Shown: positions 17,010 through 55,937 of the stretch, one piece after another
Layout: the number at the start of each line of letters is the position of its first letter
Numbering within the stretch: the first letter of the stretch is position 1
NCBI GenBank assembly: GCA_023484085.1
Contig: JAMDAS010000025.1
Coordinates: forward strand, 1 to 56,146
Direction of reading: 5' to 3'
Length of the DNA stretch: 56,146 nucleotides
Source: Candidatus Omnitrophota bacterium
Lineage (GTDB): Bacteria > Ratteibacteria > UBA8468 > B48-G9 > DTJG01
The notes under the pieces: generated by a model
Told to the model about the DNA's origin: nothing
Database searches by the model: none
The model's input: only the letters and a program-made list of their open reading frames with translations
Translations under genes and position numbers: made by a program

Positions 17010-17012
17010 TTT

Positions 17013-23929: not shown

Positions 23930-24751
23930 TTATAGGAGGGGGGTTAAGAATTTTTTTGCTTTAAGAATATCTGTTTTTTGCTGTGGTCCTGAAATTTCAC
24001 GTTCAATTGTTAACGCCCCCTTGTAATTAAAATTCTTAAGCTTCTTTATCAGTTCAGAAAAATTCACCCTGCCTTCCCCAACGGGTTTTTCCCTGCCGAT
24101 GTTAACCCCATCTGTAGGATATTCTCCATCCTTTATGTGTACGCCTCTTACGTATTTACCGAGTAAATCAAGAGCATCCACAGGATTTGCCTTGCCATAA
24201 AGCACAAGATTTGCCGGGTCAAGATTAATCCCAACGTTGTTGAGCCCCATCTCCTGAATATCATGGATGGTTCTAAAAAGCGTTGTTGGTGTTTCCTGTC
24301 CGGTTTCAAAATTGAAAAATTGGTTGTTATTTTTTAAATAGCCCACTATGTCGCATAAAACAGGAATTAAACTTCTGTAAAGAAAATTATCCGGGTTTTC
24401 CGGTATAAAACCAACATGTGTTATAACGTCCTGAACGTTTAGGGTTTTTGCAAACCCGGAAGCTTTTTTCAATGTTTCTGCCCTGACGTAACGATATTCC
24501 AGGGGAACGAGTCCAAGAGTCAATGGTCCTTCAAAAAAATTCCATACCGCAGGTCCCGGCCAGCCAGCCCATATTGCCGTTATCTGGACGCCTGATTTTT
24601 CCGCTTTTTCCCTGAGGACAGAGGCATTTTCTTCAGTATATATTTCCGGGTTCCAGCATGAAATCTGGCACGTTTCAAATCCGAGCTCTTTCATCCCGTC
24701 AAAATTTTCCACGTGTTCAAAACTGATTATAACTCCAAGTTTTAATTTCAT
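23930..24751 (-). CDS. Sugar phosphate isomerase/epimerase (xylose isomerase-like TIM barrel)
   Basis: THVGFIP, FETGQE, NLDPANL, VHIKDG and TIEREI. Confidence 0.9.
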   Translation of the reverse strand: MKLKLGVIISFEHVENFDGMKELGFETCQISCWNPEIYTEENASVLREKAEKSGVQITAIWAGWPGPAVWNFFEGPLTLGLVPLEYRYVRAETLKKASGFAKTLNVQDVITHVGFIPENPDNFLYRSLIPVLCDIVGYLKNNNQFFNFETGQETPTTLFRTIHDIQEMGLNNVGINLDPANLVLYGKANPVDALDLLGKYVRGVHIKDGEYPTDGVNIGREKPVGEGRVNFSELIKKLKNFNYKGALTIEREISGPQQKTDILKAKKFLTPLL

Positions 24752-24756
24752 TTATA

Positions 24757-25782
24757 CTATACTATTTTAATCACTTTCCTTTTTTTTATTGAAGTTTTTT
24801 CATAATGGACCAATTTTACTGCTTCAAGAGAGGTTTCCGGCCGGACCTCTTCCACGTTTTTATTTTCTTCTACGCAACCTAAAAAATACTCTATTTCCTT
24901 TTGATAGGCATTTTCAACAGGCATTGAAGGATATAAAGGCTGTTTGTCTTTTTCATATAAACAAAGCGTGGGTTTATTCCGGGAATCGTATAAAATAACA
25001 CCGTTTTCAAACGTTGCTAAAAATCCCATCGTAAATGGAAAATCCCCTTCAGCTATCCATCCTCCCTCTATTGTGCAGACAGGTCCATTTTCATAGAGAT
25101 AATTTGCGACAACGTAATTTATTCCATTGCCTATGGATTTTTTTATTTTACCCCGGGCAAATACAGAGGCAGGTTTTCCCAATAGCCATAGAGCGGTATC
25201 CACGTCATGGATATGGAGGTCAAGAATTGCCTCTCCGCCAAGTTTTGGGTCTGATATCCAACTGTTCCATGCCCATTTGGGAGCAGATGAAAGTCTTGTA
25301 AATACTATGGAAAGAAGATTTCCATATTTTCCTGATTGAATGGCATTTTTCAAAAAAAGATATTCCCCCCAGAACCTCAATACGTGCCCTATCATAAGTT
25401 TCGTACCGTTAGATTTACAGGCATCTATCATTTGTTGAGCCTCTTTCAGATTCCGTGCCATTGGCTTTTCACAGAGAACGTGTTTACCTGATTCTGCCGC
25501 TTTTATCGTATGTTTGCAGTGTAAAAACGTGGGGACACATAAATCCACCATTTGTATTTCAGACTCTTTGAAAATTTCATCTGAAATTGCGGTCGTTTTT
25601 ACGCTGGAAAAATCCATAATGTTCTGTCCAACGTTTATGTTTCCCTGAATATCCTTTCCATTTTTTAATCTTTCAACGTCTCCGTCACATATTGAAAAAA
25701 CTCTAACGTTTGAAAGGTTGTTATAGCACGAATAATGTGTTCTCCCCATAAATCCAAAACCTATTAATCCGACGTTAATCAT
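24757..25782 (-). CDS. Gfo/Idh/MocA oxidoreductase
   Basis: Start MINVGLIGFGFMG after a GGGGGG RBS. GKHVLCEKPM and DLHIHDVD motifs. Confidence 0.92.
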   Translation of the reverse strand: MINVGLIGFGFMGRTHYSCYNNLSNVRVFSICDGDVERLKNGKDIQGNINVGQNIMDFSSVKTTAISDEIFKESEIQMVDLCVPTFLHCKHTIKAAESGKHVLCEKPMARNLKEAQQMIDACKSNGTKLMIGHVLRFWGEYLFLKNAIQSGKYGNLLSIVFTRLSSAPKWAWNSWISDPKLGGEAILDLHIHDVDTALWLLGKPASVFARGKIKKSIGNGINYVVANYLYENGPVCTIEGGWIAEGDFPFTMGFLATFENGVILYDSRNKPTLCLYEKDKQPLYPSMPVENAYQKEIEYFLGCVEENKNVEEVRPETSLEAVKLVHYEKTSIKKRKVIKIV

Positions 25783-25880
25783 TTTCCCCCCTACCAGATA
25801 TTTGATTATTATACCACACAAAATTTTGTCATAAAACAAGAAATTCAGTATGGAAAATACGACAATATATTTGTAAAGTA

Positions 25881-25894
25881 TTTGTAAATACAAA
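25881..25894. promoter_or_regulatory. Candidate GntR/AraR-type operator in the divergent promoter region
   Basis: Palindrome TTTGTA-AA-TACAAA, resembling the AraR box, just upstream of TTGACA (25902-25907). Confidence 0.5.
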
Positions 25895-25938
25895 AAAATA
25901 CTTGACAAATAAAAAATGGTATGATATTTTATTATTAT

Positions 25939-27117
25939 ATGAAACATAAAAAGCAGGAAAATTTCATAGCGCCCTATCTTGAAGTAAAAGAGGACTTGCA
26001 AAAGAAAATAAAAAAGGGAAAAGGTGTATATGCAACTGGTGAAAGGATTCCCTCTGAGATGGAGTTATCACGGCACTATCATGTAAGCAGACCAACACTG
26101 AAGAAGGCTCTTTCCCTTCTTGTATCCGAGGGATACATATTCCAGATTCCGGGCCGCGGAACTTTCATTAATTCCCCGGACAATGAAATCTTTCAGCGGC
26201 AGATTGAATCACGCCGCCAGTTCAAACGGATGAACAAGGGGATTGGGGTTTTGGTTCCATGTATTACTGAATCGCTTTATCCCGGAATTCTGCGCGGTAT
26301 AGAGGATTTCTGCAAGAAAAAAGGTTATCACGTAATCCTCGGGAATTCAGATGCAACATCTGAAAAAGAACAGGAGTATATGATAATGTTCACGGAACGC
26401 GGAGTATCAGGTTTAATCATAGCTGTTTCCTATCAGTCCCATTTAAATCCCTATTATGCCACGTTGAAGAAGTGCAGGATTCCCTTTGTTCTTGTAGACG
26501 TTTCAATTGCCGGGATAGAAGCAGACCTTGTTGCGACCGATAATACAATGGGTGCTTATCTTGGAACAAGACGTCTTATAGAAAAGGGCTGTAAAAACAT
26601 TGCATTCATCTGCGGATGGAAGGAAGTATCAAGTTCTGTGGAAAGATTGGAGGGGTACCAGAAAGCCCTTGCAGAAGCCGGTCTTCCATTTCAAAGACAG
26701 ATTGTAAGACATGGTGAGTTTTCCCGGGAATTTGGCTATAATGCAGCCATGGACGTACTCGCTAAAAATTCCATAGACAGTATATTTTCTGCAAACGAGC
26801 CAATTACGCTTGGTGTATTCAGAGCTGTAGGTGAACTTAGTTCTCAAATTTCTCAAAAAATAAACATAGTGTCTTTTGACGAACCAGACGTTCCTCCATG
26901 GTTAAACAATCCTGTTGTTTTAGTTAGTCAGCCGCGATATGAAATAGGGCAAACTGCTGCGCAACTGCTTTTAGAGAGAATTTCAAAAAAGAATGTTTCA
27001 ATCACAAATTCTTACAAAAGAATTCTTCTTAGTCCGCTGCTACATAACGTAAATACAAAGGAACATAAAGTGGTTTTCTCCTCGCCATTCTTGCGGCAAT
27101 GTTACTACCGGCATTAG
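25939..27117 (+). CDS. GntR-HTH plus LacI-type sugar-binding regulator (AraR-like)
   Basis: IPSEMELSRHYHVSRPTLKKAL..L...G.I...PGRGTF followed by a periplasmic-binding-fold domain (VATDN, QPRYEIGQTAA). The C-terminal tail overlaps the next gene. Confidence 0.92.
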   Translation: MKHKKQENFIAPYLEVKEDLQKKIKKGKGVYATGERIPSEMELSRHYHVSRPTLKKALSLLVSEGYIFQIPGRGTFINSPDNEIFQRQIESRRQFKRMNKGIGVLVPCITESLYPGILRGIEDFCKKKGYHVILGNSDATSEKEQEYMIMFTERGVSGLIIAVSYQSHLNPYYATLKKCRIPFVLVDVSIAGIEADLVATDNTMGAYLGTRRLIEKGCKNIAFICGWKEVSSSVERLEGYQKALAEAGLPFQRQIVRHGEFSREFGYNAAMDVLAKNSIDSIFSANEPITLGVFRAVGELSSQISQKINIVSFDEPDVPPWLNNPVVLVSQPRYEIGQTAAQLLLERISKKNVSITNSYKRILLSPLLHNVNTKEHKVVFSSPFLRQCYYRH

Positions 27118-27740
27118 CAGCTGCAAGGGAAAAGGCAAGACAGAGTGTTTGTCTGAATAATCTGCATCAAATTGGACTTGCTTGCTTAATGTATGCCCAG
27201 GATTACCACACTTTTTATGGAGCAGGGGCTTTCCCCTACTATGGGGCTTATGGTACATGGTCTCCTGTTGCAAATCTTAATCTTTTATATGGTCCATATA
27301 TAAAATCATCTGCTACATTTGTATGTCCGGATGCCGTAATAAAAGGTCTTGACCATGTTGCAACAGGAACATCTCTTACTTCTCTTGGGCCCGGGGAGAC
27401 ATGGCAGGAGATTGGTGGTTGGCCTGACTACGGGGAATATCATGTTTCTTATGCATATTATGGTATACAGTATGGTTCTGCTCTCACAGATGCTGCTAAT
27501 CCTGATTCAGTTTTAGCCGCTGATCAGTCAGCAAAGTATATCTATGGGAAAAATAGTCCGTGGTTTTTTTATTTTGTTGATAACAATGGATATTTTAATA
27601 CTTCCGCTGTTCCAAATCATTCTGGAGGAGCTAATGCCTTATATGTTAGTGGTAACGTAAAATGGGTTCCGAATGGTGACCTGAGAAAAGATATTCAGGA
27701 AACGGATGTAAGTGGATATCATACATTATCCAATCCTTAA
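27099..27740 (+). pseudogene. DUF1559/H-X9-DG prepilin-like protein lacking its leader and methylation motif
   Basis: In frame, [32 protein letters not shown], so [12 protein letters not shown] is missing. C-terminal NHSGGANALYVSG. Confidence 0.75.
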
Positions 27741-27758
27741 AAAGGGGGGGTGAAAAAA

Positions 27759-28637
27759 ATGCGAAATGTAATGCAATGGAATGAAGTCCGCCAGTCCGCC
27801 AATCTTTTTGGAGGACGCCAATCCTTATGGCGGAAAGAAGTGAATAGCAACGGAAGAGCCGCCTTTTCCTTAATAGAGCTCCTGGTTGTCATAGCAATCA
27901 TAGCCATTCTTGCGGCTATGTTGCTGCCGGCACTGGAGGCTGCAAGGCAGAAAGCCAGAGCGGATGTCTGCTTGAATAATCTGAAAGAAATAGGTCTTGC
28001 TTTTTCAATGTATCTGAATGACTGGAATGAACAATATCCGCCTCTTGTGGAAGAAAATGCAGGCTTAGGGCCAAGTTATAAAGAAATAGGTTGGATAGAA
28101 CTCCTTCAGCCCTATCTTCATTTTCAGATTCAATATCTTGCACCAGGTGCCAATGGATTTGGGAGTCCAGGGCAACTTGCTGTTTGCCCGCAACTATTCA
28201 TATGTCCTGCAGTAATGGCAAATTATACTACTGATTGGACAGCCTATTTTGATATCGGTTCTATTTATGGATATTCCGATGCAATAAGTTCGGGTATTGG
28301 CTGGCCTTCTTGGCTCCCTATTAAAGAATCAGTTATAAAAAGTCCTTCAAACCAGGTGGTTGTGGCTGAAGATATATATGGCTGGAGATTTTATTACTGG
28401 AACCAATTTATTGCTGGACATGGACTTGGAATAACTGATGCATATAGTTCCCCACAACAACAACAAACCAGTACAGAAGAAGGTAGTGTATTAATGGCTG
28501 ATGGGCATGTAGAATCCCATCCATATAGCTGGGCCATAGCCACAAAGGGGAATTGGAATGGATATAATTTAAATGCAAATCCAGGTGCTGCATATATGGG
28601 TCCCTGGGATACTTTCTATCATATCCCCGGCACTTGA
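27759..28637 (+). CDS. Prepilin-type N-terminal cleavage/methylation protein, DUF1559/H-X-DG family
   Basis: [34 protein letters not shown] and C-terminal H-X26-DGHVE. SD GGGGGTGA. Confidence 0.9.
27793..27815 (+). repeat. 23-bp REP-like hairpin, copy 1, nested in a related TCCGCCA..TGGCGGA hairpin
   Basis: AGTCCGCCAATCTTTTTGGAGGA is 22/23 identical to the reverse complement of 46393-46415. Confidence 0.7.
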
Positions 28638-28707: not shown

Positions 28708-30081
28708 ATGATGAAAAAAAATTTGAATATTGGTATAATTGTGAGCTTTTTGATTTTTATTACTTCAGGGAACGTCTTCGCCCAATTAAACGGACAGTCA
28801 TCTTTAAATGAAAATACAAATTTTGGGAAAGCATATAATCAGTTTATTTCCGCACCTGTAAAAAGTTATGATTTTTCCCCTTGTATATCTTCATTTAACA
28901 CAATTGCCGCTGAAACCAGCAGCAAAAAAACAAAAACGTCTGCGCGGTTTTTTCTTCTACTCTCCTATTTTTGTTCCACAAATTTTGATAAGGCTTATAA
29001 TGAAATAAAAACCATATATACAAGAAAACTTTATCCGGAAAATAAAACAACCACTGTTTTGCTTCCAAAGGTAATGAACGAATATGAAGTAGGTCATTCG
29101 TCATTTCAGAGATTATTAATAAACAATTCATTGATAAAGGTTATTATGCCCGGAGAAAATGTCAGTGATCTTGTCGGGATTGAAAAAACCATAAAAATTT
29201 TTGATACCCAAAAAGAATTATCCCTTATGCAACCCACTACGGTATATAAAAACGCCCGGGAAAAAATAAATAAATTAGAAAAAGAAACAACAACTGATAA
29301 ACAGAAAAAGATAATGGACATGATGAAAAAAAACGTTGATATGATGAAGATGCCCTCTACAAGAAACTTTTACAAGATGACTGATGTGCTCTCCATTCTT
29401 ATAGAAGATAGCAGTTTTAATGGTATGAGAAACTCTATAACAAAGACAATAGGACTTTCCATATGCGCTCAAAATCTGCGACAAATAGGCATAGCATTTC
29501 ATCTATATCTGCTTGACCATAATGACTATTTTCCACCTCTTACCGTGAAGGACCGGGTACCTAATGGTACGCCAGACCAGGCTGGTAAAGGATGGATCCA
29601 ATTATTAGAGCCATATCTTGGTCTGAAAAACGTCATAGTAAAAGCAGGTGGCTGGGATAATGGATATATCCCCTTAGTTCCATCCTTATTTGACTGTCCG
29701 ACAAGACAACATTCCTGGACAATGTATGCAACCGGTGAGTATGGATATAATGATTATGTAAGCAGAGGCGGTCCTACGCCTGGATGGCCATTTTACAAGT
29801 GGTGTAAATTTTCATATGTTCCAAAACCTGATATTCAGGTGGTTGTTGCGGAGTCGTTATATGGCTCTCGTTTGTATGGTAATCATCAATTTGTAGCTCC
29901 GCATGGTCATATTCAAGTTGATGGGAATAGTTCTGTGGATTTGCAAAAAACCAGTACTTCTTTAGGAAACGTTTTATATGCAGATGGACATGTGGAAGCA
30001 CATCCGTTTAGTTGGGCAATAAGTTGGCCATATGGATATTTAAAAGGTGGAAACGACCCCTGGGATACGATGACTAAATAA
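28708..30081 (+). CDS. Sec-secreted protein with unknown N-terminal domain fused to a DUF1559/H-X-DG domain
   Basis: Signal peptide ending VFA. C-terminal CAQNLRQIGIAFHLY...YFPP...H-X26-DGHVE closely parallels 27759-28637. Confidence 0.8.
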   Translation: MMKKNLNIGIIVSFLIFITSGNVFAQLNGQSSLNENTNFGKAYNQFISAPVKSYDFSPCISSFNTIAAETSSKKTKTSARFFLLLSYFCSTNFDKAYNEIKTIYTRKLYPENKTTTVLLPKVMNEYEVGHSSFQRLLINNSLIKVIMPGENVSDLVGIEKTIKIFDTQKELSLMQPTTVYKNAREKINKLEKETTTDKQKKIMDMMKKNVDMMKMPSTRNFYKMTDVLSILIEDSSFNGMRNSITKTIGLSICAQNLRQIGIAFHLYLLDHNDYFPPLTVKDRVPNGTPDQAGKGWIQLLEPYLGLKNVIVKAGGWDNGYIPLVPSLFDCPTRQHSWTMYATGEYGYNDYVSRGGPTPGWPFYKWCKFSYVPKPDIQVVVAESLYGSRLYGNHQFVAPHGHIQVDGNSSVDLQKTSTSLGNVLYADGHVEAHPFSWAISWPYGYLKGGNDPWDTMTK

Positions 30082-30148: not shown

Positions 30149-33100
30149 ATGAAAAAAGAAATTAGAAAAATTTTGGGCTCTATTATGTTTACCGCATCAT
30201 TTACACTGATTTTTTGTTTTTCAGCAAAAGCAGAACATACGCTTCCACAATTATATTATAAATTATCTACAAGTATTGTAACACCTCATATTTCATGGGC
30301 AAATCCTTATTATAAGGGACCATTGCATATACTTGTTATAGCCCCGAGATGGCGGCAGAGAGATACAGTAGAGCTGATGGAACGCCTGGATGCGAAGGTT
30401 ACACCGGTTTTTTGTTTTAATGACAGCAGTCTTTATTTAAATGGATGGGATTGGGGTTTTGAGAAAGCAAAGGGAATCCAGAAACAGGCAGTTGAAAAAT
30501 CCCTGGATGATGCTTTAATAAGAAATTATGACGTAATTATCCTTGCCTATGCACCTATACAAACCTTTCCCAAATCTGCAGTTGAAAGCATTTTAAGAAA
30601 AGTTGAAGCAGGTACAGGACTTGTATACATTTATCCAGGGAACACAATTCCCAATAACCCTTTTGTTAAAGAACTGACACTAACGTCATTATCAGGAGTA
30701 GAGCAATCTGCAGTATCAGGAATTCCTGTTGAATGTTTACAGCTCAGGAATTATACAGGTCCTCCTAAAAGTGAAAAAGAATTGAAAAATTTTCTTTCTT
30801 TTTATAGATATGGAAATGGAAAAGTGGCTATGGTTAATTTAAACAGTACAGGTTTTCTTGCTTATCCTGCAGGTAATGATTTGGACTTTGAAACGTATAC
30901 TGCATACATGATAAACGTAATACTTGGGGTAAGCAAAAAACAAAGTCAGATACAATATACTACTTATCAACCATTTTTAAGTTCAGATGCAGGCAAGCCG
31001 TTCAATTATAAATTATCCCTGGATAATACGGGAAATTCCTTGAGAGCAAATATTACAATATCTGTCCATCCATTTAAGCAATTGTTTGTTCCCAAAGAAC
31101 CGGAAGTAAACCAGGGAATAAATAATGCGTCAGGATATATTGCTTCATACTGGAAAGAAAAGAAAAATATATCTTTACCTGCAGGACAATCTAACGTTTC
31201 TTTTGCAATTCCAGGACTTGCTGCCGGAAATTATTATATTTTTGTACAGGTTTTATCTGGAGGAAAAAAGGTATCATTTTGTATTCAAAAACTTACAGTT
31301 AAATCCGGGATTAAAATAGAAAAAGTTCAGATAACACCTTCAGCCATGGATTTAAATAATTCAAACAGGAATATTAAGGTTGAATTAGATTTAAGTGCTC
31401 CTGCACCATCAAATTCATCTTTATCCGCTGTTTTACTTGATAATTATGACAGGATTCTTGATGCCAAAACTTTTGAAATAAAACAAAATAGTAATAACGA
31501 ACAATTCAATCTTTCAGTTAACCATATTTTTTCAACCCTTGGAAAAGTTAGGGTAATACTTTCTATAAACAAAAAAATAATGTCTGTAAAAACCGGCTAT
31601 TTTACGGTTTATCACAGAAAATGGCCCAATTTTACGTTTTTTGCCTGGGGAGGAGAAACAGGTTCTTATGATTATGATATGATGAGAAAAATTGAAGTTT
31701 CAATGGGAGTAGATGCTTTTAGAGGTGGGGACTCCATAGAAACGCTTAGGATTGCAGATGATAGATGTATTCCTGATATGTATAGACTTCTTGCAGGCGT
31801 AAAAAATGGGAAAGTAGAACCTTCTTATGTTAACCCTGATAATCGCATTGAAAGGGCAAAACAAATTTTTTCTGCTGTTAAAGATACCATGCCATTTGAC
31901 CCGTATGCCTATCTTCAGGGTGATGAGTTTGGTTTTATTAATGGTGGTTTACCTGGTGCATCCAAAGGGAAAAACTCTATAGAAGATTTCAGGAGATACT
32001 TAAAAGCTAAATATAAAACTATTGATAATCTTAATAAACAGTGGGGATTTAATTATGATTCTTTTTATCAGATAGAGCCGGTTACAACAGGAAGTAAGGT
32101 TGATGCCGCCAGGAAAGCCCTTGATTTTTCATATCTTATTGACCAGTGGACGTATAACTGGTATGTCTTTGGAGATTCCGTCAGGTTTTATCATGATGCA
32201 TTAAAGGATATAGACCCTACGGCAAAACTTGGATTATCCACACCTCTATGGAATTATTATTACCGTGCCTATGACTGGCCTGTTCTTATGAAATATATTG
32301 AATTTTTTACACCATATAATGATTTTGGCGGTGATGCCCATTATGACATTGCCCGGTGTTTTGCAAAACCAGGTACAGTATTAAGTCAGCACTATGGTTC
32401 TTACTCTAATGTTTTAAACAATCTTCCTTACTACAAGGTAATGCCCTATGCATTGCTACTTGATGGCTGCCAAAATCTTTTCTGGTATAACTTGGGTTTT
32501 GGTGATGAATCAGGAATTTCACCTTCAATGACCCCATACCCGGGTTTTGAAACGACTTCCCTTGAAGTAAAAAAAATTAAAAGCGGGATTGGAAATCTAT
32601 TTGTTCATTCCAGCAGGATAAAAGGCAGGATTGGCATAGAATACAATGAACCTTCTTTCCTTTTTTCTTTTCTTGTTTCTTCTCCAAACGTTCCATGGAC
32701 GTATAATGAATTGAGGACTTGTCTTTCAAACCTTGGTTATGACTATCAATTTATCTCAGACAGTCAGATTTTAAAAGGAGGGCTTTCATCTTATAAGATT
32801 CTTTTTTTACCTGTTTCTCAATGTATCAGTTCAAGACTGTCAAAAAAATTAAAAGAATTTGTTGAAGGTGGAGGTCTTCTTATTGCAGTCGTAAAACCTG
32901 GTCTTTTTGACGGACATGGAAAATATTATGGAAAATCAAGTCCGAGCAGCAGAATTTTTGGGCTTGAGTGGAAAAATCCTTTACAACAACTTGGGCTTGG
33001 ATGGAAAAAGCCTTTACAACAATCCTCACCTGGAAAAATTCATCAGATAACGGGCAAATATAAAAATGAAAAATTTCAATGGACGTTTAAGTCGGATGAA

Positions 33101-41587: not shown

Positions 41588-42514
41588 ATGCGAAATGTAA
41601 TGTACGGAGTGAAACGAAGCATCCGCCAATCCTTATGGCGGAAAGAAATAATAATCAGCAAAAACACCGAAAAGGAGGAAAATAAAATGTTTACAAAACA
41701 GACAGAAGCAAGGAAAGGAAACACAAAAACCGGCTTCACGTTAATAGAATTATTGGTTGTCATTGCCATCATTGCCATCCTTGCGGCAATGTTGCTGCCA
41801 GCGTTGGCAAAGGCACGGGAAAAAGCAAGACAGGCAGTATCTATCAGTAATATGAAGCAACTCGCACTTGCGATGGCAATGTATCTGAATGATTATAACC
41901 AGACCTATCCTCCTATGTATGTCAATTGGGACCCGTGGGGATTAGGGGCTCAGGAGGGAGTAGGGACATTTTGGGCATATCAATTATATCCATATGTGAA
42001 AAACTGGAAGGTTTACTATGACCCGGATGAGTCAGAGTATTATCAGGGATATAATCCTTCTTTAGGGTTGGGAAAACCAGGACTTGCAAATCAAAATGCC
42101 GAAGGACAGCCTGTGATGTGGAACTATATGGGCTATGGTTATAATGTAGGGTTTAGCAATGAATATGATATGGGACTTTGTGAAATATTCACTATGCCAA
42201 ATATGGCTATTACAAGCAACATGGTAACAACACCATCACAAACATTATTATTTGGTGAAAGTGCAGTCCCGACAAGTTCAACTCCATGGTGGGGTTATGG
42301 TCCTGATATGTTAAGCTGGCAGGGATGGCAGCTTGATACTTTCCAATATCGTCACAGTGGAGGAGCGGACATTGCTTTCTGTGATGGACATGTTCAGTGG
42401 TATCCAAAGTCTGACCTTGAAAACAGGGAGTATTATAACAATCAGACTCCCAATCCCAACTTTGTACCTGGCTGGCCCTGGACAAGGGATGGGAAAGGAG
42501 TACCAGGACCATAA
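41588..42514 (+). CDS. Prepilin-type cleavage/methylation protein, DUF1559/H-X9-DG (alternative start 41687)
   Basis: [25 protein letters not shown] and canonical [15 protein letters not shown]. Confidence 0.92.
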
Positions 42515-42582
42515 AGAAATTTTTAATTAATAGTTGATTTGTATAATATATATTTTATTTATCCATTATTTGGAGGAGAATT

Positions 42583-42795
42583 ATGCCTGAAAAAAAAAGT
42601 AATCCGGTGGCAATAGTGATTTTAATTATTATTATAGTGGCGGCTATTTTCTTTATTATTAAACAAACAACAAAAAAGCCGGCAGGAGCAATGCCAGCTC
42701 CGACAAAATTATTACCACAACCGCCTTTACCCAAATTGAAATCATCATCGTATTATATGAAAAAGTATCAACAAGAAAAAACAGTGAAGAAGTGA
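42583..42795 (+). CDS. Small single-pass membrane protein with Pro-rich tail
   Basis: GGAGG RBS, hydrophobic VAIVILIIIIVAAIFFII and PAPTKLLPQPPLP. Confidence 0.7.
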   Translation: MPEKKSNPVAIVILIIIIVAAIFFIIKQTTKKPAGAMPAPTKLLPQPPLPKLKSSSYYMKKYQQEKTVKK

Positions 42796-42927
42796 AGAGA
42801 TAAAGGTAACTTATTTATATCTATTATGGAAATATTTTAATGTGTGTATGTAGATATGAATCTTGCGTGGATATATTATAGAAAGTATTTATAAGTATAT
42901 TTTTGAACGAAAAAATGGGAGGATAAG

Positions 42928-46350: not shown

Positions 46351-46392
46351 CAAACAATATGTTTTACTCTTAAATACTCAGCTAACGGTGTT

Positions 46393-46415
46393 TCCTCCAA
46401 AAATATTGGCGGACT
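46393..46415 (-). repeat. 23-bp REP-like hairpin, copy 2
   Basis: Minus strand (GT)AGTCCGCCAATATTTTTGGAGGA. Confidence 0.7.
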
Positions 46416-46448
46416 ACCGGACTGAAGGTACAAAATTTGGAGGATAAA

Positions 46449-49400: not shown

Positions 49401-49988
49401 CTGGGATTTCCAGTGAACGTTGAAATACATAAAGTATCCCAACTTCTACGGTATATAAATGAGTTAAAGACACCTGGTGGATTATTGGTGGCACGGGGGA
49501 CAAAAGTCCAAAGTTCGGGTATTGAGGAATTTATTCCTGAAAACCATGCAGTGGAACTGTACATCCAGAAGCCGTTTACATCCCTGCCTTTGACGCTCCC
49601 TGTAAGAATTCAGGGTCTTAATCCACGGTGGTCAGCAGGATTGTTCCTGATAAAAGGGTATGGAGATTTTGGCACAGGAGAGAATCTATATCGTCCATTG
49701 GCAGTGAGCCGAACCGGGCATGCGTATATTCCAATGTATGTGGACTGGTCTACGGCAACATGGCTTGTTGCCGGCCAGCCGATAGTTGCGGGTAAACATG
49801 GAAAAAAACTTTTTATCCAGGTTACACGTCTCCAGGCTCACCCGGGAAAATGGTATGTTGCCGTTAATAACCCTACAAATAAAACAATTACCACTATTTT
49901 ACACCCGACAATGGATTTACCCGGCCTTGTATTTCATACTCAATTTATTACCTTGAAACCCGGGGAATATAGAGTGCTTCAACATTAA
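46449..49988 (+). CDS. Large secreted paralogue of 42928-46350
   Basis: Shared LKEECKKY, GF.IK...GNH..FFG, I.NGPKI, CSD and NNPTNKTITT motifs. Confidence 0.65.
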   Translation: MKRILAIGILLCLFSIGYVFGSNISSQKKPSILFCAPQAGYGWVDLGYLRQLTQKGFEVDYTTDLSQVTWNRIKHYNVLVIYVTPDAFAISDQGQRSFPEEKEKSFVNLIKKYLSHGGGVFLFPSETNITWGQHTKQQVSDLTNFLGAKVPVDLIVEKNPADVSAISHMSYGVSVAWTDNVFPTSVSQGVKGIWYPTQPAYFAQMTSPLWVNKDWQVVIRASKTAYLQPVNFNNATDVIKHPFILPAETPEPVLFAIRSYKTGRIAFMDQWRQFSIGAGTKWLYNNEVLSKGFKGRPSDFGRLLDNTFKWLAEPSLKNHTLGGYTTLMDKLIPPNYLSGVKKQYNGFNSHFVKNWVSRPNFLNYGRSSVPPHLYRGLIGVKTTFSTGKNTVRQYAQEAQKLGLNFLVFMDNFSQLTPVKFKQLKEECKKYSNDKLKLFAGFSIKNNIGNHMLFFGPHPAWPPDNVLTGHHKDIIYIQQENKKGQYTYPGVTPFIDWVLNNYSQYNQVAYYDFSGSKEGMKMHDLRLYGMAGLMYYKNGRLVENDTKDYLTTVQGAMPSVPASIDEVDSVRQLSNAVKENHYLTYVNADSLDNMFMSGLRWNNQYDGFDDFISNGPKILAWPACWRVITYGGEQFITAPNVMPSHILVTSKIGLKEIDIYNGQHLFRRIFLHGEKEFNKDLILNATIQKNLVLIAKDIAGHKAISFPRISRFEGDLAPVFCSDHENSYAGALLFSHGPAWFPLVRIPPLPNAGDTWDGGPLAVSPLTGNQSTVPVLDSSMGKEDGGRFNQIPLLNFSDEGAVGMEGVHKDVFDNRLLAVANTWNTCGPIAGPSKLFKYSQYYREWFRPTVDVPHTGWAGPQVGAGTTVSLFREVITFRKNLKVKSLLLGYNTGNQTNHGFLVIGTNKGMEQVDLSKPGNYKTFHLKKGDWFGYYNKQKQPANSALFINRGGPIYLQNNAPYVFIYADINNKQVKKGDIFIYELSTLGFPVNVEIHKVSQLLRYINELKTPGGLLVARGTKVQSSGIEEFIPENHAVELYIQKPFTSLPLTLPVRIQGLNPRWSAGLFLIKGYGDFGTGENLYRPLAVSRTGHAYIPMYVDWSTATWLVAGQPIVAGKHGKKLFIQVTRLQAHPGKWYVAVNNPTNKTITTILHPTMDLPGLVFHTQFITLKPGEYRVLQH

Positions 49989-50001: not shown

Positions 50002-51576
50002 ATGGATTTCAATAAAAAAATTATTTTTTTATTGTTGATATTTTTATCCTGTAGTTTTTCATTATTTGCAGCATCAGTAAAAATAATCACTGGCAGAAAT
50101 GGTGAAAAACTGATAATCATGCAAAATAATCTTCTCAGATTGCAGATTGACCCAAATCATGGTGCGCGTGTGGAAGGTTTTCAATATAAACCATGGGGAA
50201 AAATTAATATTATCCAGGATAAAAACGGACAGGGTCTTCTTGCAGACCATTTCTGGCAGGAAAGCTGGCCAGGTCAGTTCTGGAATGCAAAATATAATTA
50301 TAAAATTCTCTCCAGAGGGCCTGCAGAAGTATCAGTTGGATTTAGTTGCCTTTCTCAAAATAACGGTATTCCCCAGGTTGCAGGTATTTTATTGGAGAAA
50401 ACAATAACCCTAAAAGAAAATGACAGGGTAATCATGGTGACAATCAGTTTAACCAATAAGACGTCTACCGGGAAATATGTAGGTTATTGGCTGCAGAACG
50501 TATGCTGGCTTGGTGGTGAAAAACCCGATAACTATTATTTCAGACCGGGTAAAACCGGGATTAACATAACATCTTCCAATGAAGCAAATCCTCCTGACGG
50601 CGGATTTTTACGGCATCCACAGGCCGGGTGGCTCGCAGGGATTGATAAAAAAACTAAAACAGGGCTGATTTTTTTTATGAATTATAATGAACTGTGGTTT
50701 CTGTATAATTGTACGGCCGCCTCTACAATAGAATGGCAGTATCAGGCAGTCGTAATCTCACCAGGCAGAACATGGCGGACGCATATAACCATTGTTCCTG
50801 TATCTGAAGTAAAATCATTAAGCGGAAATTCCATAAAAAAAGTTGTTCAATCCTTATCCGTTTATTCCATCAAAAGCCAGAAAAAGTTCACATTAGTTCT
50901 CAGGCCTGAAAAAATTATACGTATCATAAAACCCCAGCCGCACGTTCTTTTTCTTAAGGGGCTTTTTTCTCCCCAGTATCATATTGGAGAGGTATTAAAA
51001 CAGGTCTCCTCTTCTGTTAAAATAAAGGAAGGATACGTTTATGATTCAGTTTTTGGTTCCCATCTGGATTATTTCCCGTATAATTATGATGAGCTGATGA
51101 GTTATAATCTTGTAATAATAGGAGACGTAAGTGCAGAGTCTCTTGGAAATGCCGGTATGGAAATGTTAAAAGACTATTGTAAGTATGGAGGCAACATCCT
51201 GGTTCTTGGAGGACCTTGTGCGTATGGTGATGGCGGATACCAGAACACTATTCTGAACAGGATATTGCCTGTAATCAGTCAACGCCCTTTTGATTTACGG
51301 CGCAGCAAAAAGCATGAAAAAATTATCCTGTCTCCCAAAATCAGGGACATGTTTTCCAATAAAATCCCTGAACCGCAATATATCCATGATGTAACAGTCA
51401 AACCTGGTGCTGAAGTGCTGATGAGATATGGTTCATTACCCGTAATTGTATCAGGGCATTATGGAGAAGGTAGGATATTCTGCATTACTGCACCACCAAT
51501 GGGAAGACACAATATCTATAAAAATGCACAATGGCATAAAATATTAGTATATTTACTTAAACAGGCAGGTATATAA
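50002..51576 (+). CDS. Secreted galactose-mutarotase-like beta-sandwich plus GATase1-like domain protein
   Basis: Signal peptide, MQNNLLRLQIDPNHGARV, and C-terminal YNLVIIGDV...GGNILVLGGP.AYG.GGY...ILPV...YGEGRI. Confidence 0.65.
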   Translation: MDFNKKIIFLLLIFLSCSFSLFAASVKIITGRNGEKLIIMQNNLLRLQIDPNHGARVEGFQYKPWGKINIIQDKNGQGLLADHFWQESWPGQFWNAKYNYKILSRGPAEVSVGFSCLSQNNGIPQVAGILLEKTITLKENDRVIMVTISLTNKTSTGKYVGYWLQNVCWLGGEKPDNYYFRPGKTGINITSSNEANPPDGGFLRHPQAGWLAGIDKKTKTGLIFFMNYNELWFLYNCTAASTIEWQYQAVVISPGRTWRTHITIVPVSEVKSLSGNSIKKVVQSLSVYSIKSQKKFTLVLRPEKIIRIIKPQPHVLFLKGLFSPQYHIGEVLKQVSSSVKIKEGYVYDSVFGSHLDYFPYNYDELMSYNLVIIGDVSAESLGNAGMEMLKDYCKYGGNILVLGGPCAYGDGGYQNTILNRILPVISQRPFDLRRSKKHEKIILSPKIRDMFSNKIPEPQYIHDVTVKPGAEVLMRYGSLPVIVSGHYGEGRIFCITAPPMGRHNIYKNAQWHKILVYLLKQAGI

Positions 51577-51608: not shown

Positions 51609-53819
51609 ATGAATATACATAAATTTAAAAGGCTATATTTAGGACTGATTTTGTTTGCATCATTTGTAACATTATGTTCAGCACAACAAAAAGAAATATC
51701 TTCACAACCAGGGCAGACGTCCATTTCAAAGGCAAACCTGGCTGCTGGCGCGTACAACATAATCTTCAGATTGAAGATAAACAAAGAACAACAGAGTGTT
51801 ACTCCCTTGGCAACCCTGACTGTCAGTTCACCTGAATATCCAAACATTCTCTATAAATCAATAACTCCTATCAGATTTGTATCTGTCAACACAACGACAA
51901 AATTTCAATTCTTGTTTGATAATTTCAAAACCCAGGATATTACGGCGTCTGTAAATTTTATGAACAACAAAGTTCCTGTCCCTGAATTAAGTGTGGAAAA
52001 AATCACCATTGCACCTGTGGATAATCTTTGTGTAGCAACGGTCTGGCCCGGAAAGATTCTTTATTATAGACATGAAAATGCCAGTGGATTTGTGATTGTG
52101 TATAATGGCACCCGCCAGTATAAAACAATTATTCTGAAGTGTTTTCTTGAAAGCGGTATTGATAATGTAAAACCTTTGAAAACACAAAAACTCACCTTAG
52201 AGCCCAGAGAACGTATGCAGGTTCCTGTGAAATGGAACACAGGAAACAAGGAATATGGATTTGCTCTTGTGGGCAGTATTTATAATTTGAAAGGGAAAAA
52301 ACTCAGTGAAAACAAACAATATTTCAGTGTGGCAGATAATCTATGGAAGGTGGGTATGTATCTGCGCGGGCGGGGGACAGAAGTGCCATTTGGAGTTGGA
52401 GCCAATCAATCCATGCCTGTCAAATGGGTAAAAGAGCAGGAAAAAGCCCTTTCCAGTGAGCTGGCAAAACCGTTTGCGCCTGTGTATTGGAACTATGGCA
52501 ACTATGTTGAATTCTATGCATGGTCCCCGGACGATTTCTTCAACCTGTCTCCTGATACCGATTACTGGTACAGCGGAACAGGGAATTACACCATCGGGAA
52601 AAAATGGCTTCAGCTCAGCATAAAATGGCTGCACCGCAGGGGAATGCGGGCAATTTCGTACCTTAATCCATTTTCCTGTGGTTATGGCGGGAACAAGGTT
52701 TTACAAAAACATCCTGATTGGTTTGTCTATGATAAAAATGGACAGGTGACAACAGGCGGTAGTTATTATGAAAAAAAACTTGAAGTTGGGGAAGAAAACG
52801 GACCAAAGCAGCCATGGTATTTACAGCTTTCCCCTTATGCTTTGACGCTTTCTCCGGACATATCAACCATGGCGCCGATAAAGGCGCAGGTGGAACAGAT
52901 TATAAAATCACAGAAAATGTTTGGCTGGGATGGGGTTAGATTTGATAATGAGGTTTACGGTTCTTCCGGATACGATTTTTATGGCCACAAAATAGCAGAA
53001 AACCCGAAACAGGCAAGTCAGATGGAAATAAAAGCATGGGAATACATGAAAAACTCTTTATGGAAAAAGCTTGGCCATAAGTTTGTTATCGGTGATAATT
53101 TTGACTATTATGCCCGGCATCAACAACCACCCGGTGTATGGGAGGAAACCTGTAAAGATGGGCAATTACTTATGTGTGAAATGCCCCGTGGGTCTTATGA
53201 CCCACAAAGTCCCTGGAATAAATGGTCTGATTTTCTGAGTTATTTCAATAATGTGGGCAATATAGTGGATAGATTAGGCGGGTATCCTTTAATAATCGGG
53301 TTTGACAACCAGTACCCTGTAGACCATCTTTATCTGAATATTTTTACTTACGCAGCAAGATTACATCCTTATTGCTACCAGTATCATCCTGATGACCTGC
53401 CTTTTGGAAACTATGCCCAATTTGTGACCCGCTATAGTGCCTTAATCTGGGATATACATAGAATTAAACCTTTATCTACGGATAAAATTATTGAAGTAAA
53501 AAGTAATAAGCCAATCTGGTGGAAGGGCCTTGCATACGTGAGATTATCAAGTAATGGTAAGTCCCGGTATATCATCAATCTTATCAATCCGCCTGTCCGG
53601 AAAAAAATTTATACGGACCCTACGAATAGTGTTCCTTTTCCAATAGATAATATTCAGGTTATCTTAAAAGAAAAACCAGGGGAAAAGATTTCCAATGCTT
53701 ATCTGTTATCAGCAGAACCTGTTACACACATGAAAAAATTACCTGTTACTTCTGGAAATGGTTATGTTTCAGTAACAATACCAAAGATTTATTTCTGGAG
53801 TATGGTAGTATTTGAATAG
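51609..53819 (+). CDS. Secreted TIM-barrel glycoside hydrolase, GH66-like
   Basis: Signal peptide, Ig-like N-terminus, WLHRRGMRAISY, FGWDGVRFD and C-terminal VTIPKIYFWSMVVFE. Confidence 0.55.
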   Translation: MNIHKFKRLYLGLILFASFVTLCSAQQKEISSQPGQTSISKANLAAGAYNIIFRLKINKEQQSVTPLATLTVSSPEYPNILYKSITPIRFVSVNTTTKFQFLFDNFKTQDITASVNFMNNKVPVPELSVEKITIAPVDNLCVATVWPGKILYYRHENASGFVIVYNGTRQYKTIILKCFLESGIDNVKPLKTQKLTLEPRERMQVPVKWNTGNKEYGFALVGSIYNLKGKKLSENKQYFSVADNLWKVGMYLRGRGTEVPFGVGANQSMPVKWVKEQEKALSSELAKPFAPVYWNYGNYVEFYAWSPDDFFNLSPDTDYWYSGTGNYTIGKKWLQLSIKWLHRRGMRAISYLNPFSCGYGGNKVLQKHPDWFVYDKNGQVTTGGSYYEKKLEVGEENGPKQPWYLQLSPYALTLSPDISTMAPIKAQVEQIIKSQKMFGWDGVRFDNEVYGSSGYDFYGHKIAENPKQASQMEIKAWEYMKNSLWKKLGHKFVIGDNFDYYARHQQPPGVWEETCKDGQLLMCEMPRGSYDPQSPWNKWSDFLSYFNNVGNIVDRLGGYPLIIGFDNQYPVDHLYLNIFTYAARLHPYCYQYHPDDLPFGNYAQFVTRYSALIWDIHRIKPLSTDKIIEVKSNKPIWWKGLAYVRLSSNGKSRYIINLINPPVRKKIYTDPTNSVPFPIDNIQVILKEKPGEKISNAYLLSAEPVTHMKKLPVTSGNGYVSVTIPKIYFWSMVVFE

Positions 53820-53833
53820 GAGGAAATAATATT

Positions 53834-54922
53834 ATGAGAAAGTTTAAATTATTAGTTTTTATAGCAGGAGTATTATTTATATCTTTTTCTTTTGTTCATG
53901 CAGATGTTCTCACACAAAATCTGCTGCAAAATGGTGATTTTGGAAAAGCAGGTATTCCATTACCAGGGTGGAGTATAAATCTTTCACCTGGAGAAAGTTA
54001 TAAACTGACATCTGATGTTGTGATAGGAAAAAAAGCCCTTGAAATAGATTTACCTGTTGCCGGAAATGCAGATGTGATTTCTGCACCATCTCCTGTATCT
54101 GGTGGTGCTTCTTATCTTCTAATATTCTGGTATCATGCAAATGGCATGAGCACTAAAGGATGGACTTACCAGGGATGTAATTCATATTGTTCTATTATAT
54201 GGCAGGATGCAGGTGGAAAAGAAATAAAGAATACAAATGCCGTGGTCGGGTTACCATACGGGTCTGTAAAATATTATCAGCCTGCTACATTTACAACTAC
54301 TGCTCCAGAAAGGGCTGTGAAAGTTATTGTATCATTTAATATTGGGGTTGGGAAAGAGTATAAAGGACCCCCAACGTCCATCTTTATAGACGATATTCGT
54401 TTGATGAAATTAACAAAAGTCTCCATACCTGTAAAACCTGAAAAATGGGTATATTTACATCGCAATCTTAGTGCAGGATTAAAAATGGTAGAGGATAAGA
54501 ATGCAGAACATGGTCAGGCAATTATGGCTGCTCCTGGTGTAACTCCAAAATATACAGGATTGACATGGGGACAATACACAAAGGACCAGCCTGTGGGTGA
54601 ATATTTGGCCGTTTTCCGTCTGAAAGTAAAAAACAATACAAAGAAAGAACCTGTTGCCCAACTGGACGTTAATGATTTTGGAAATCTTAATGGTGAGATT
54701 GCAGAAAAAACGCTGTTTGCCACAGATTTTAAACATCCAGGGGTTTACCAGGATTTTACTCTCAGATTTGTGCGACCGGAAGCAGGAGTGCTGGAATTCA
54801 GGGTAATGTATCTTGGTACAACATCTCTTTCATTTGATAAAACCACAGTTATACAGCTGAAATCTTTAAAAACGGATAAGGAACAATTTGCTATCTGGTT
54901 CGGAAAAGGTTCTGTCAAATAA
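53834..54922 (+). CDS. Secreted tandem CBM-like beta-sandwich protein
   Basis: Signal peptide (VHA), NLLQNGDF...PGW...IFIDDIRL (CBM4/9/16-like), and a second sandwich (WGQY...GEYLAVFRLK). Confidence 0.65.
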   Translation: MRKFKLLVFIAGVLFISFSFVHADVLTQNLLQNGDFGKAGIPLPGWSINLSPGESYKLTSDVVIGKKALEIDLPVAGNADVISAPSPVSGGASYLLIFWYHANGMSTKGWTYQGCNSYCSIIWQDAGGKEIKNTNAVVGLPYGSVKYYQPATFTTTAPERAVKVIVSFNIGVGKEYKGPPTSIFIDDIRLMKLTKVSIPVKPEKWVYLHRNLSAGLKMVEDKNAEHGQAIMAAPGVTPKYTGLTWGQYTKDQPVGEYLAVFRLKVKNNTKKEPVAQLDVNDFGNLNGEIAEKTLFATDFKHPGVYQDFTLRFVRPEAGVLEFRVMYLGTTSLSFDKTTVIQLKSLKTDKEQFAIWFGKGSVK

Positions 54923-55158
54923 GAAATGAAATAAATATACCTGATAGCGAATTGCACAGTCACAGGAACAAAACAAGAAGAAAAGCGTCAGCGTTCGTGC
55001 AATCAGACTTTAGTCTCTTTGCAAAAACATGTTTGAACTCGCTGGCCGCAGTAGTATGCGGACAGGAGTGAGTTGTTTTTGGCACGATTTCTTTGTAGTT
55101 TTATCTGTGACAGAGCACCTGAGCGGACAGGTATATTTATTTCATTTTTGACAGAACC
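54908..55158. mobile_element. 251-bp MITE with 8-bp target-site duplication
   Basis: Ends GGTTCTGTCAAA / TTTGACAGAACC and inner IR AAATGAAATAAATATACCTG. TSD TCGGAAAA at 54900-54907 and 55159-55166. Confidence 0.9.
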
Positions 55159-55181
55159 TCGGAAAAATTTAGGAGGGTAAA

Positions 55182-55937
55182 ATGAAAAATAAAACGTTGA
55201 TCCACTTTATATTGGTCAAAGCACTGATTTTTGGGTTTCTATTTACCACCTGTGTTTCAAGTTATGCTCATGCCCGGGATACAATTCTTGTCCTTGCAGG
55301 ATTGGGTAATAAAACCTATCTGCCCGTCAAACTTCTACATGAGACATTTACTTTTAAATATTCGTATTTGGCAAGTCTTCAGACAGGATTTGTTCTTGAT
55401 AAGCCTTTTCCCCAGAACTTTAAAAAGTTGAAAGGCATTAAAATCATTATTATGGCAGACGTTCCTGCCAGCGCCTTGAATGGTTTGTTGGGAAGAATGG
55501 CATTATGGGAGTTTGTAAAACATGGTGGTGGACTCTTATATTTTGGAGGTCCCTTTGCTTTTGGTAAAGGAGATATCAGGGATTCTTTATTAGAATCTGT
55601 CCTTCCTGTAACAACGACTGGCCCATGGGATATGATAAAATCTCCGGGACATGTTAAAACAACGGGCTATTCCTCAATAACTGCAGAATTGGATTGGAGT
55701 AAAAACCCATATATATTTTATGAACAGAAAGTTAAACCGAAATCCGGTTCAAATACACTTTTACGATGCAATGGAACACCGGTTTTGATAACGGGCAGAT
55801 ATGGAAAAGGAAAGGTGGCAGTATTTACCGGCACGTATTTTGGAAATCTTCAAAAAAATAAAAATCATGTGTTTTTCTATAAATGGCAGGACTATCCCGA
55901 ATTACTTACCAGGATACTCAACTGGCTGCGGAACTGA
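55182..55937 (+). CDS. Secreted GATase1-like (DUF1355-type) protein
   Basis: Signal peptide (AHA), IIIMADVPA, FVKHGGGLLYFGGPFAFGKG, VLPV and YGKGKV. Confidence 0.7.
   Translation: MKNKTLIHFILVKALIFGFLFTTCVSSYAHARDTILVLAGLGNKTYLPVKLLHETFTFKYSYLASLQTGFVLDKPFPQNFKKLKGIKIIIMADVPASALNGLLGRMALWEFVKHGGGLLYFGGPFAFGKGDIRDSLLESVLPVTTTGPWDMIKSPGHVKTTGYSSITAELDWSKNPYIFYEQKVKPKSGSNTLLRCNGTPVLITGRYGKGKVAVFTGTYFGNLQKNKNHVFFYKWQDYPELLTRILNWLRN

Follow-up and report, generated by a model that had tools for sequence, protein, structure and literature searches.

Two sugar-regulated operons with DUF1559 pilin-like genes and large secreted proteins in a draft genome of the Ratteibacteria

Why should genes for type IV pilin-like proteins lie between a sugar-sensing regulator and genes for giant secreted proteins? 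The question is raised by contig JAMDAS010000025.1 of a Candidatus Omnitrophota bacterium (GTDB Ratteibacteria; assembly GCA_023484085.1). The 56,146-nt stretch analysed here (the window) is one whole contig of this draft genome (G000; 906 kb, 62.6% complete, approximately 36% G+C). A preliminary description made from the sequence had recognized the same gene plan twice, in locus A (25.9-39.3 kb) and locus B (40.5-55.9 kb): a GntR/LacI regulator, pilin-like genes of the DUF1559 family, two large secreted paralogues and accessory genes. It had proposed that the pilin-like proteins occupy the position held in a polysaccharide-utilization locus (PUL) by the glycan-capture pair. The plan itself was borne out by open reading frames (ORFs) and Pfam matches, and loci A and B are two sugar-regulated operons of a type that recurs across the lineage. 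The interpretation as a whole was partly supported.

Gene plan and recurrence of the two loci

The genes between 23.9 and 56.1 kb were taken from the ORF listing and Pfam searches, NCBIfam, Foldseek and Atlas were used for single proteins, and signal peptides were judged by inspection of N-termini. Locus A comprises a regulator, three DUF1559 genes, two large paralogues and a GFO/IDH/MocA oxidoreductase, and locus B a regulator, one DUF1559 gene, two large paralogues and four secreted accessory proteins.

Locus A
25921-27117, plus strand: regulator A, GntR-type winged helix-turn-helix (HTH) and LacI/RbsR-type sugar-binding domain (Pfam GntR 9.6e-16, Peripla_BP_1 1.2e-22)
27099-27740, plus strand: DUF1559 copy, probably leaderless (Pfam PF07596 3.2e-10)
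27750-28637, plus strand: DUF1559 prepilin-like protein (Pfam PF07596 and N_methyl; TIGR02532 above cut-off)
28708-30081, plus strand: secreted protein with DUF1559-type head (Pfam PF07596 23.5 bits; tblastn)
30149-33862, plus strand: large secreted paralogue A1, 1237 aa, distantly like glycoside hydrolase family 42 (GH42) (Pfam GH42M 1.3e-8, GH42 7.3e-6)
33908-38167, plus strand: large secreted paralogue A2, 1419 aa (Pfam GH42M, GH42, Bac_rhamnosid_N and GH2_N, all weak)
38282-39292, plus strand: GFO/IDH/MocA oxidoreductase (Pfam 1.3e-25)

Locus B
40490-41569, plus strand: regulator B, GntR-type HTH and LacI-type sugar-binding domain (Pfam GntR 1.1e-15, Peripla_BP_3 2e-24; NCBIfam)
41588-42514, plus strand: DUF1559 prepilin (Pfam PF07596 2e-13 and N_methyl; TIGR02532 and TIGR04294 above cut-off)
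42583-42795, plus strand: small ORF, 70 aa, one membrane helix, Shine-Dalgarno site (sequence)
42928-46350, plus strand: large secreted paralogue B1, 1140 aa (no Pfam match; model and Foldseek)
46437-49988, plus strand: large secreted paralogue B2, 1183 aa (no Pfam match; likeness to B1)
50002-51576, plus strand: secreted protein with C-terminal GATase1_like domain (Pfam PF07090 3.6e-8)
51609-53819, plus strand: secreted 736-aa protein with GH66 C-terminal likeness (Pfam PF13199, profile positions 406-546 of 546)
53834-54922, plus strand: secreted 362-aa protein, possibly a CBM_4_9-like beta-sandwich, a lead only (no Pfam match; Atlas feature score 0.93 to CBM_4_9 clusters)
55182-55937, plus strand: secreted GATase1_like protein, last gene of the contig (Pfam PF07090 1.7e-14)

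Locus B is truncated, the contig end (56146) lying 209 bp past its last gene. In the same-genus relative G001, an orthologous run B2-B5-B6-B7-B8 is followed by a further B1-like gene that reaches the contig edge. The assignment of both regulators to the GntR/LacI type was confirmed by GntR and Peripla_BP matches in each; regulators A and B both combine a GntR-HTH and a LacI-type sensor in one chain. Regulator A also matched Peripla_BP_3/4 in Pfam and an RbsR/PurR-like effector domain in NCBIfam. The same build is found in AraR of Bacillus subtilis, a chimera in which a GntR-type HTH is fused to a sugar-binding domain of LacI/GalR type and which regulates sugar-utilization genes. AraR is not known to be a partner of pilin genes.

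We then examined five relatives of the same order (G001, G002, G003, G013 and G014), whose genomes of 2.0-2.7 Mb contain 29-59 DUF1559 matches each. Among 46 GntR matches in the relatives, nine short or edge fragments were dropped and 37 loci kept, in which pilins and regulators were marked by purpose-built profiles after ORF calling. Counts refer to 35 distinct regulators of at least 340 aa, from G001, G002, G003 and G014. The next gene on the same strand after the regulator was a DUF1559 gene in 24 of the 35. A DUF1559 gene was present within three genes in 28 of the 35, and in 24 of these 28 an ORF of at least 550 aa followed within two genes. If DUF1559 genes make up approximately 2.3% of all genes, less than one adjacency is expected, and the probability of at least 24 in 35 is approximately 1e-31, a figure that has to be read with the fact that the loci are not mutually independent. 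One to four DUF1559 genes per operon (four in tandem in each of loci L034 and L038) stand behind the regulator and ahead of Sec-exported multidomain glycosidase-like proteins.

Most of these regulators share just 16-27% of residues with regulator B, and identity of the pilins to the locus B pilin is 32-40%. As both have diverged so strongly, the adjacency of regulator and pilin must be old and has been maintained; it spans two families of the order. It is also not forced by copy number, since G013, from the sibling family f2, combines 46 DUF1559 matches with just one GntR match, a short one.

In G000 itself, each of the 12 DUF1559 genes is followed within three genes by an ORF of 800 aa or more. 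Put the other way, a DUF1559 gene was found no more than three genes upstream of 10 of the 38 ORFs of this size; for the remaining 833 ORFs the figure was 15 (odds ratio 19, p 1.5e-8). Outside the window, nine of ten ORFs scanned beside or upstream of pilin genes contained domains of glycoside hydrolase (GH) or carbohydrate-binding module (CBM) type in Pfam, namely GH42/GH42M, DUF4838+GH2_N+CBM96, GH123_N, GHL6, CBM9, DUF6259, CBM_4_9 and GH2.

A wider sample of 80 DUF1559 loci was taken from named Verrucomicrobiota, Planctomycetota, Armatimonadota and others. A general link between DUF1559 genes and such regulators was rejected on this sample, which gave seven regulator-model matches in four loci (L051, L058, L059 and L114). 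The match in L051, covering the HTH part only, was the sole one directly upstream of DUF1559 genes, and a full-length match in L114 lay 4.6 kb upstream. Partial echoes of the module were seen only in loci labelled Lentisphaeria. The lineage studied here is itself probably Lentisphaeria-like, judging by the labels on the nearest loci, by Atlas taxa and by one homologue with a Victivallales name.

Pilin-like proteins and filament machinery

The four window genes described as encoding pilin-like DUF1559/H-X9-DG proteins all exceed the PF07596 gathering score of 23.3 bits (51.4, 40.9, 34.4 and 23.5 bits), but they do not all retain the features of the name. Class III signal peptides were recognized in the products of 27750-28637 (A/FSLIELL, the stroke marking the break) and 41588-42514 (G/FTLIELL, with E5). 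The H-X9-DG motif is intact in the latter only (TIGR04294, 22.3 against a cut-off of 19 bits). By inspection, the other three carry S or SG variants, and the H is missing in 27750-28637. The gene at 27099-27740, which overlaps the 3' end of the regulator A gene, encodes no prepilin leader and has lost the start of the N-terminal helix; its product begins MLLPAL and a stop codon lies just upstream. Judging from its sequence, it is probably a decayed or leaderless DUF1559 copy. The product of 28708-30081 has an ordinary Sec signal peptide and a 240-aa N-terminal extension, followed by a DUF1559-type head 41-43% identical (tblastn) to that of 27750-28637. With this signal peptide and extension, it is not a prepilin.

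An alignment of the pilins revealed that the N-terminal helix stretch is almost invariant while the heads are hypervariable. The heads are also rich in aromatic residues, as the preliminary description had remarked, with W and Y making up 12.9% in the 12 pilin heads of G000 and 5.0% in the proteome. When a structure of the locus B pilin was predicted, its helix alone aligned to 1ay2, 8tj2 and 3sok (E 0.4-1), the matches including gonococcal and Myxococcus pilins. The best N-terminal NCBIfam match of this pilin is GspG. The scores against the GspG equivalog TIGR01710 (38.5 and 31.2 bits, over the first 60 residues) are far under the cut-off of 88.85, and the window pilins are therefore not GspG. 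They share with the GspG-K pseudopilins a prepilin leader, E5 and a hydrophobic helix, but their heads are twice as large and hypervariable, and there are dozens of copies per genome.

For 41588-42514, translation likely begins at the ATG at 41687, preceded by a Shine-Dalgarno site of its own; the sequence ahead of this ATG belongs to a leader conserved in front of the mature pilin part. This leader was found at 41588-41686 and 27750-27860 in the window, and at C9:42229, C11:38950, C17:12469 and C17:59578 elsewhere in G000. An exact 15-mer, ATGCGAAATGTAATG, has six copies in G000, every one at a pilin gene. We considered the encoded stretch 'MRNVM...RQSLWRKE' as a long prepilin leader, and rejected it because the frame differs among copies: the leader is in frame in some, out of frame in C9, and stands before a second Shine-Dalgarno site and ATG in two. 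A 20-base hairpin of the TCCGCCAATCTTTTWGGNGG type with a 7-bp stem occurs in approximately 23 copies over the 906-kb genome, at 27795 and 41622 in the window and at about 21 other places. Seven copies adjoin pilin genes, and the hairpin looks like a repetitive extragenic palindromic (REP)-type repeat. As the frame varies and the hairpin is dispersed genome-wide, the leader is a nucleotide-level element rather than a conserved peptide, and may be a regulatory 5' element. The small ORF at 42583-42795 was also considered, as a conserved partner of the pilin, and was rejected; after 61 pilin genes were examined it proved unique, apart from one artefact match inside a pilin-like ORF.

The preliminary description had called for a search for filament machinery elsewhere in the genome. 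A GspE/PilB-type assembly ATPase, a 364-aa PilT-like ATPase, a secretin and a minor-pilin operon are present in G000; the prepilin peptidase (A24) was found in the relatives alone, one each in four of them. The relatives have 5-7 full-length ATPases and 3-4 secretins each. In a conserved cluster (G001 C56, G002 C27, G003 C2 and G014 C89), two full-length GspE/PilB-type ATPase genes flank a PilT-like ATPase gene of approximately 400 codons. In L042, canonical 127-aa pilins adjoin a GspE/PilB-type ATPase. Because such canonical pilins exist, the DUF1559 proteins would probably be accessory subunits and not the bulk of the filament.

Large secreted proteins, transport and neighbouring genes

Inspection indicated a Sec-type signal peptide on all of the large proteins of both loci. 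A1 and A2 are 31% identical over approximately 1264 aa, and B1 and B2 28% over approximately 1240 aa. The view of the locus A pair as GH42-like was upheld in a weak and partial form. In A1, likeness is confined to the second half of the barrel (positions 148-210 of the 376 in the GH42 profile) and a GATase1-like 'trimerization' domain. Residues 611-1050 of A1 match PDB 9ta3_A (E 2.2e-8), and the alignment places 'VLSQ' of A1 opposite 'LMEQ' of 9ta3_A, in which we take the E to be the nucleophile. A2 carries an extra N-terminal domain of sugar-binding type. The oxidoreductase encoded at 38282-39292 has no signal peptide and would serve a cytoplasmic step.

The PHP-like character proposed for the locus B pair gained support from the fold of B1. 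The model (mean predicted local distance difference test score, pLDDT, 87.5) consists of a GATase1-like/IFT52-like N-terminal domain, a PHP-like middle and a beta-sandwich C-terminal half. The middle domain is predicted to have the PHP fold, with Foldseek matches to 2anu_C (E 8.6e-5, TM-score by target 0.57) and 3e38_A (E 9.6e-5). B1 represents a conserved family of approximately 1150 aa without a Pfam model. It has 112 homologues, mostly 42-47% identical, none of which bears a name beyond 'hypothetical protein'; the source labels that a few of them carry are Planctomycetota, Armatimonadota, Limisphaerales, Kiritimatiellaeota and Victivallales. A predicted complex of B1 residues 26-700 with the locus B pilin head (residues 76-308) scored 0.01, which has no bearing either way.

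As for the accessory proteins, 51609-53819 matches GH66 in its C-terminal domain (the last 135 residues) but not in the catalytic domain, and it scored 15 bits against the NCBIfam endo-dextranase model, whose cut-off is 730. The protein taken for a CBM had the Atlas lead given above but no Pfam match. The GATase-like proteins were recovered as described, by the PF07090 matches of 50002-51576 and 55182-55937. GATase1-like domains recur in A1, A2, these two proteins and several pilin-linked proteins elsewhere in G000, and may be a module shared for docking or for binding sugars.

Pfam searches detected no transporter family between 23.9 and 56.1 kb, a region whose intergenic gaps (at most 414 bp) are too short to hide one. 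The sole ORF of the window with at least six predicted helices is the FecCD permease at 20555-21574, in a cobalamin cluster whose ABC system, not related to sugars, is the only transporter in the window. The absence of SusC/SusD was also confirmed, as no Pfam families of that type were found in the window. TonB-dependent receptors (PF00593, PF07715) exceeded the cut-off in one of 21 related genomes and did not do so in G000. Conventional sugar carriers were few: G001, G002, G003 and G014 gave 8-13 matches to MFS_1 (major facilitator superfamily, MFS) and 5-8 to ABC permease domains, together with a single SSF match (G014); G000 gave two, none and none, respectively.

On the other hand, sibling regulator-pilin operons in G003 end with a 12-helix DUF6785/DUF6784 membrane protein. 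Such proteins, of approximately 630-660 aa with 10-13 predicted helices, were recorded in G001 and G003 at L021:4869-6755, L030:2609-4510, L142, L144, L146 and L147. Among 13 DUF6785 genes in four relatives, five lie in or beside DUF1559 loci and one directly after a regulator. An Atlas model resembles carriers of the OPT family (TM-scores 0.72 and 0.76), which makes DUF6785, on structural grounds, a candidate for carrying oligosaccharides. Neither a solved relative nor, in the literature searched, a paper on DUF6785/DUF6784 was found.

Upstream of locus A and divergent to it are two genes:

23930-24751, minus strand: xylose isomerase-like TIM-barrel protein of sugar isomerase/epimerase type, without signal peptide (Pfam AP_endonuc_2 E 2.5e-24)
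24757-26001, minus strand: GFO/IDH/MocA oxidoreductase (Pfam E 1.1e-22)

The listed start of the latter is a TTG; since the Rossmann domain begins only at residue 75, the true start is probably near 25782. Genes of nucleotidyltransferase type lie on either side of locus A, at 23104-23691 (weak AbiEii-like match) and at 39558-40130 (DUF6036), the latter being the spacer between the two loci. Further upstream, 14290-23076 holds a DUF2961 protein and then the cobalamin salvage cluster on the minus strand (CobT, CobU, an 807-aa protein without Pfam match, an ABC ATPase, the FecCD permease and CobQ). Positions 1-9416 form a defence and mobile region, with genes for a specificity subunit of type I restriction, for an endonuclease of GmrSD type and for a type I R subunit, and after these IS21-type IstB and transposase genes on the minus strand. 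An Rfam search of the window gave tRNA only. The stretch 40400-46400 is present in four public sequencing runs (X1-X4, two studies) labelled as mine tailings or mine drainage metagenomes, the best of which may be the sample of origin, and there was no RNA run among the public runs containing it.

Possible roles of the pilins

The explanation that we favour, with a probability of roughly 0.4, is a putative substrate-specific capture of glycans by DUF1559 pilins on a shared filament, which we place ahead of cargo-specific secretion or display. Each operon would supply its own pilin subunit. The near-invariant helix would fit the subunit to a shared type IV filament machine (ATPase, PilT-like ATPase, minor pilins, secretin and prepilin peptidase), and the hypervariable, aromatic-rich head would bind the target glycan of that operon. 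The filament would then capture the polymer at the cell surface, and retraction may carry it to the co-induced enzymes or via the secretin into the periplasm. This capture step would stand in for SusC/SusD in a lineage nearly without TonB-dependent receptors. The released sugar would cross the inner membrane via carriers encoded elsewhere, either MFS proteins or the OPT-like DUF6785 proteins of sibling loci, and once imported would relieve repression by the regulator.

Precedents exist for parts of this scheme. As in the SusC/SusD PULs of Bacteroidota, a sugar-responsive regulator lies beside co-regulated secreted glycan-active proteins and a diversified non-enzymatic gene takes the lead position, but here there is no SusC/SusD pair and the lead gene encodes a type IV pilin-like protein. 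As an adjacent SusC/SusD pair was looked for and not found, loci A and B are not Sus-type PULs. In planctomycetes, a phylum rich in DUF1559, dextran has been reported to bind pili-like fibres, with the polymer taken up whole, in work that also concerns crateriform structures (PMC5394234); the available part of that report gives neither subunit identity nor an operon link. For the MUL2 locus of Akkermansiaceae, likewise PVC (Planctomycetes-Verrucomicrobia-Chlamydiae) bacteria, a type IV-like pilus was proposed to attach to complex glycans (PMC13174399). Unlike the loci described here, MUL2 is, as far as the available part of that source goes, one conserved locus (Amuc_1099-1102) with a PilM protein and an archaeal-type pilin, without a diversified DUF1559 gene heading each enzyme operon.

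Several results weigh against the capture explanation. In G000, at 62.6% completeness, no Peptidase_A24 prepilin peptidase was found. Only two of the four window DUF1559 genes (27750-28637 and 41588-42514) encode intact prepilins, and from its sequence the Sec-signal copy at 28708-30081 cannot be expected to enter a filament by the usual route. The prediction of the pilin head called for by the preliminary description gave a poor model of the locus B protein (mean pLDDT 66; helix 52-102 and a small sheet), and Foldseek on this poor model found no lectin-like, solute-binding or other fold match for the head. The aromatic richness of the heads may be a family trait unrelated to sugars. No sign of co-diversification emerged from a Mantel test of regulator against pilin-head distances in 26 adjacent pairs (r -0.02, a value reached or exceeded in 1196 of 2000 permutations), both sets of distances being near saturation. 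The absence of transporters, emphasized in the preliminary description, holds for loci A and B by Pfam and helix scan but is not a trait of the class, since sibling loci carry or adjoin DUF6785 genes and locus B is cut by the contig end.

The co-localization of DUF1559 genes with regulators and large enzymes, seen in G000 and four relatives, did not extend to the 80 loci of other lineages, in which the regulator-pilin-giant enzyme module was not found. In that sample, an ORF of at least 700 aa lay within three genes of 23 of the 69 evaluable DUF1559 genes, approximately the expectation from gene size. Because this adjacency is close to chance, the role of the pilins, if real, may hold only for the present lineage. 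The module is lineage-restricted and not general to DUF1559. Moreover, a role in secretion or display is compatible with the same data, and some of the idea has been published before, for an isolate of the Opitutales (PMC13274419, 2026).

Secretion is the basis of the alternative that survives best, which we regard as possible but rather unlikely. The DUF1559 protein would join a type II pseudopilus as a cargo-specific pseudopilin that recognizes the co-encoded giant enzymes and pushes them out or tethers them. All the large proteins bear Sec signal peptides and would have to cross the outer membrane by some path, there are several ATPases of GspE type and several secretins per genome, and the four tandem pilins of L034 and L038 resemble the four-member tip of minor pseudopilins. 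The GspG match of the locus B pilin points in the same direction as its best N-terminal hit, but stays far under the cut-off. Against this alternative stand the PilT-like ATPases, proteins of retractile pili rather than of type II secretion. Classical type II systems employ one pseudopilin set for all cargo, which counts against a subunit for each operon.

The isolate mentioned above, Verruconatronum alginivorum, is instructive here. A pulG-like pseudopilin with 67 homologues in the genome lies inside an alginate-induced cluster and is among the proteins over-expressed on alginate, and the authors read it as a matter of enzyme export (PMC13274419). A member of a many-copy pseudopilin family within a polysaccharide-degradation cluster is thus common to both cases. 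That organism belongs to another phylum-level lineage, with lyases as cargo and a TonB-dependent system, and the available part of the report describes no pairing of GntR/LacI regulator and pilin, although its supplements may bear on priority.

A stronger form of glycan capture would make the DUF1559 pilins the counterpart of SusC/SusD, with a ligand-specific pilin per regulon, a retractile filament that reels polysaccharide through the secretin to periplasmic giant enzymes, and DUF6785 importing the oligosaccharides. Taken as a complete scheme, we consider this unlikely.

A further possibility is that DUF1559 proteins, tethered through their helix either to the inner membrane or to a short pseudopilus in the periplasm, bind released oligosaccharides and pass them to an inner-membrane transporter. 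This would recall the bindosome of Sulfolobus, where substrate-binding proteins, among them sugar-binding ones, have class III (pilin-type) signal peptides and sugar uptake needs a pilus-type assembly system (PMC3047682). The bindosome is archaeal, however, and according to the available part of that source employs classical ABC solute-binding proteins encoded with ABC transporters. Pfam's own name for PF07596 is 'SBP_bac_10', locus A includes one copy of the head that lacks a leader and another that is soluble and exported by Sec, and the relatives have DUF6785 genes placed as described above, all of which would suit such a role. Taking into account that neither window locus has a transporter, that DUF6785 was not found in G000 and that no fold likeness to solute-binding proteins was seen, we judge it quite improbable. 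The least probable reading, that these are adhesion, aggregation or envelope pilins without a glycan-specific role, brought to operon heads by duplication of whole modules, agrees with the DUF1559 genes of other phyla being mostly not beside regulators or giant enzymes and with the lack of a co-diversification signal in the Mantel test, but not with an adjacency that persists at 16-27% regulator identity across two families, with pilins directly behind the sugar-sensing regulator in 24 of 35 cases, or with the 46 DUF1559 matches of G013 without such regulators.

What is new is the regular module of regulator, DUF1559 pilin and giant enzyme over dozens of diverged loci, in a TonB-poor lineage and with an OPT-like candidate carrier. 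The DUF1559 literature, in its available parts, yielded no link to glycan loci, with gene-level data possible in supplements, and a paper on laminarin in Lentisphaerota mentions neither pilins nor GntR. PVC bacteria have few paralogue families as large as DUF1559, and the 68 copies of Planctopirus limnophila are recorded as of unknown function (PMC10632474). As each copy in the present lineage is tied to a sugar-sensing regulator and a set of glycan-active proteins, ligand, induction and phenotype become predictable locus by locus. The loci also point to an enzyme family without a model, that of B1 with its 112 homologues, and to the candidate carrier DUF6785. If the pilins do capture or import glycans, they would represent a third way in which bacteria that have an outer membrane take up polysaccharides, the others being TonB-dependent import and complete digestion outside the cell, and would explain how these bacteria feed without SusC-type receptors.

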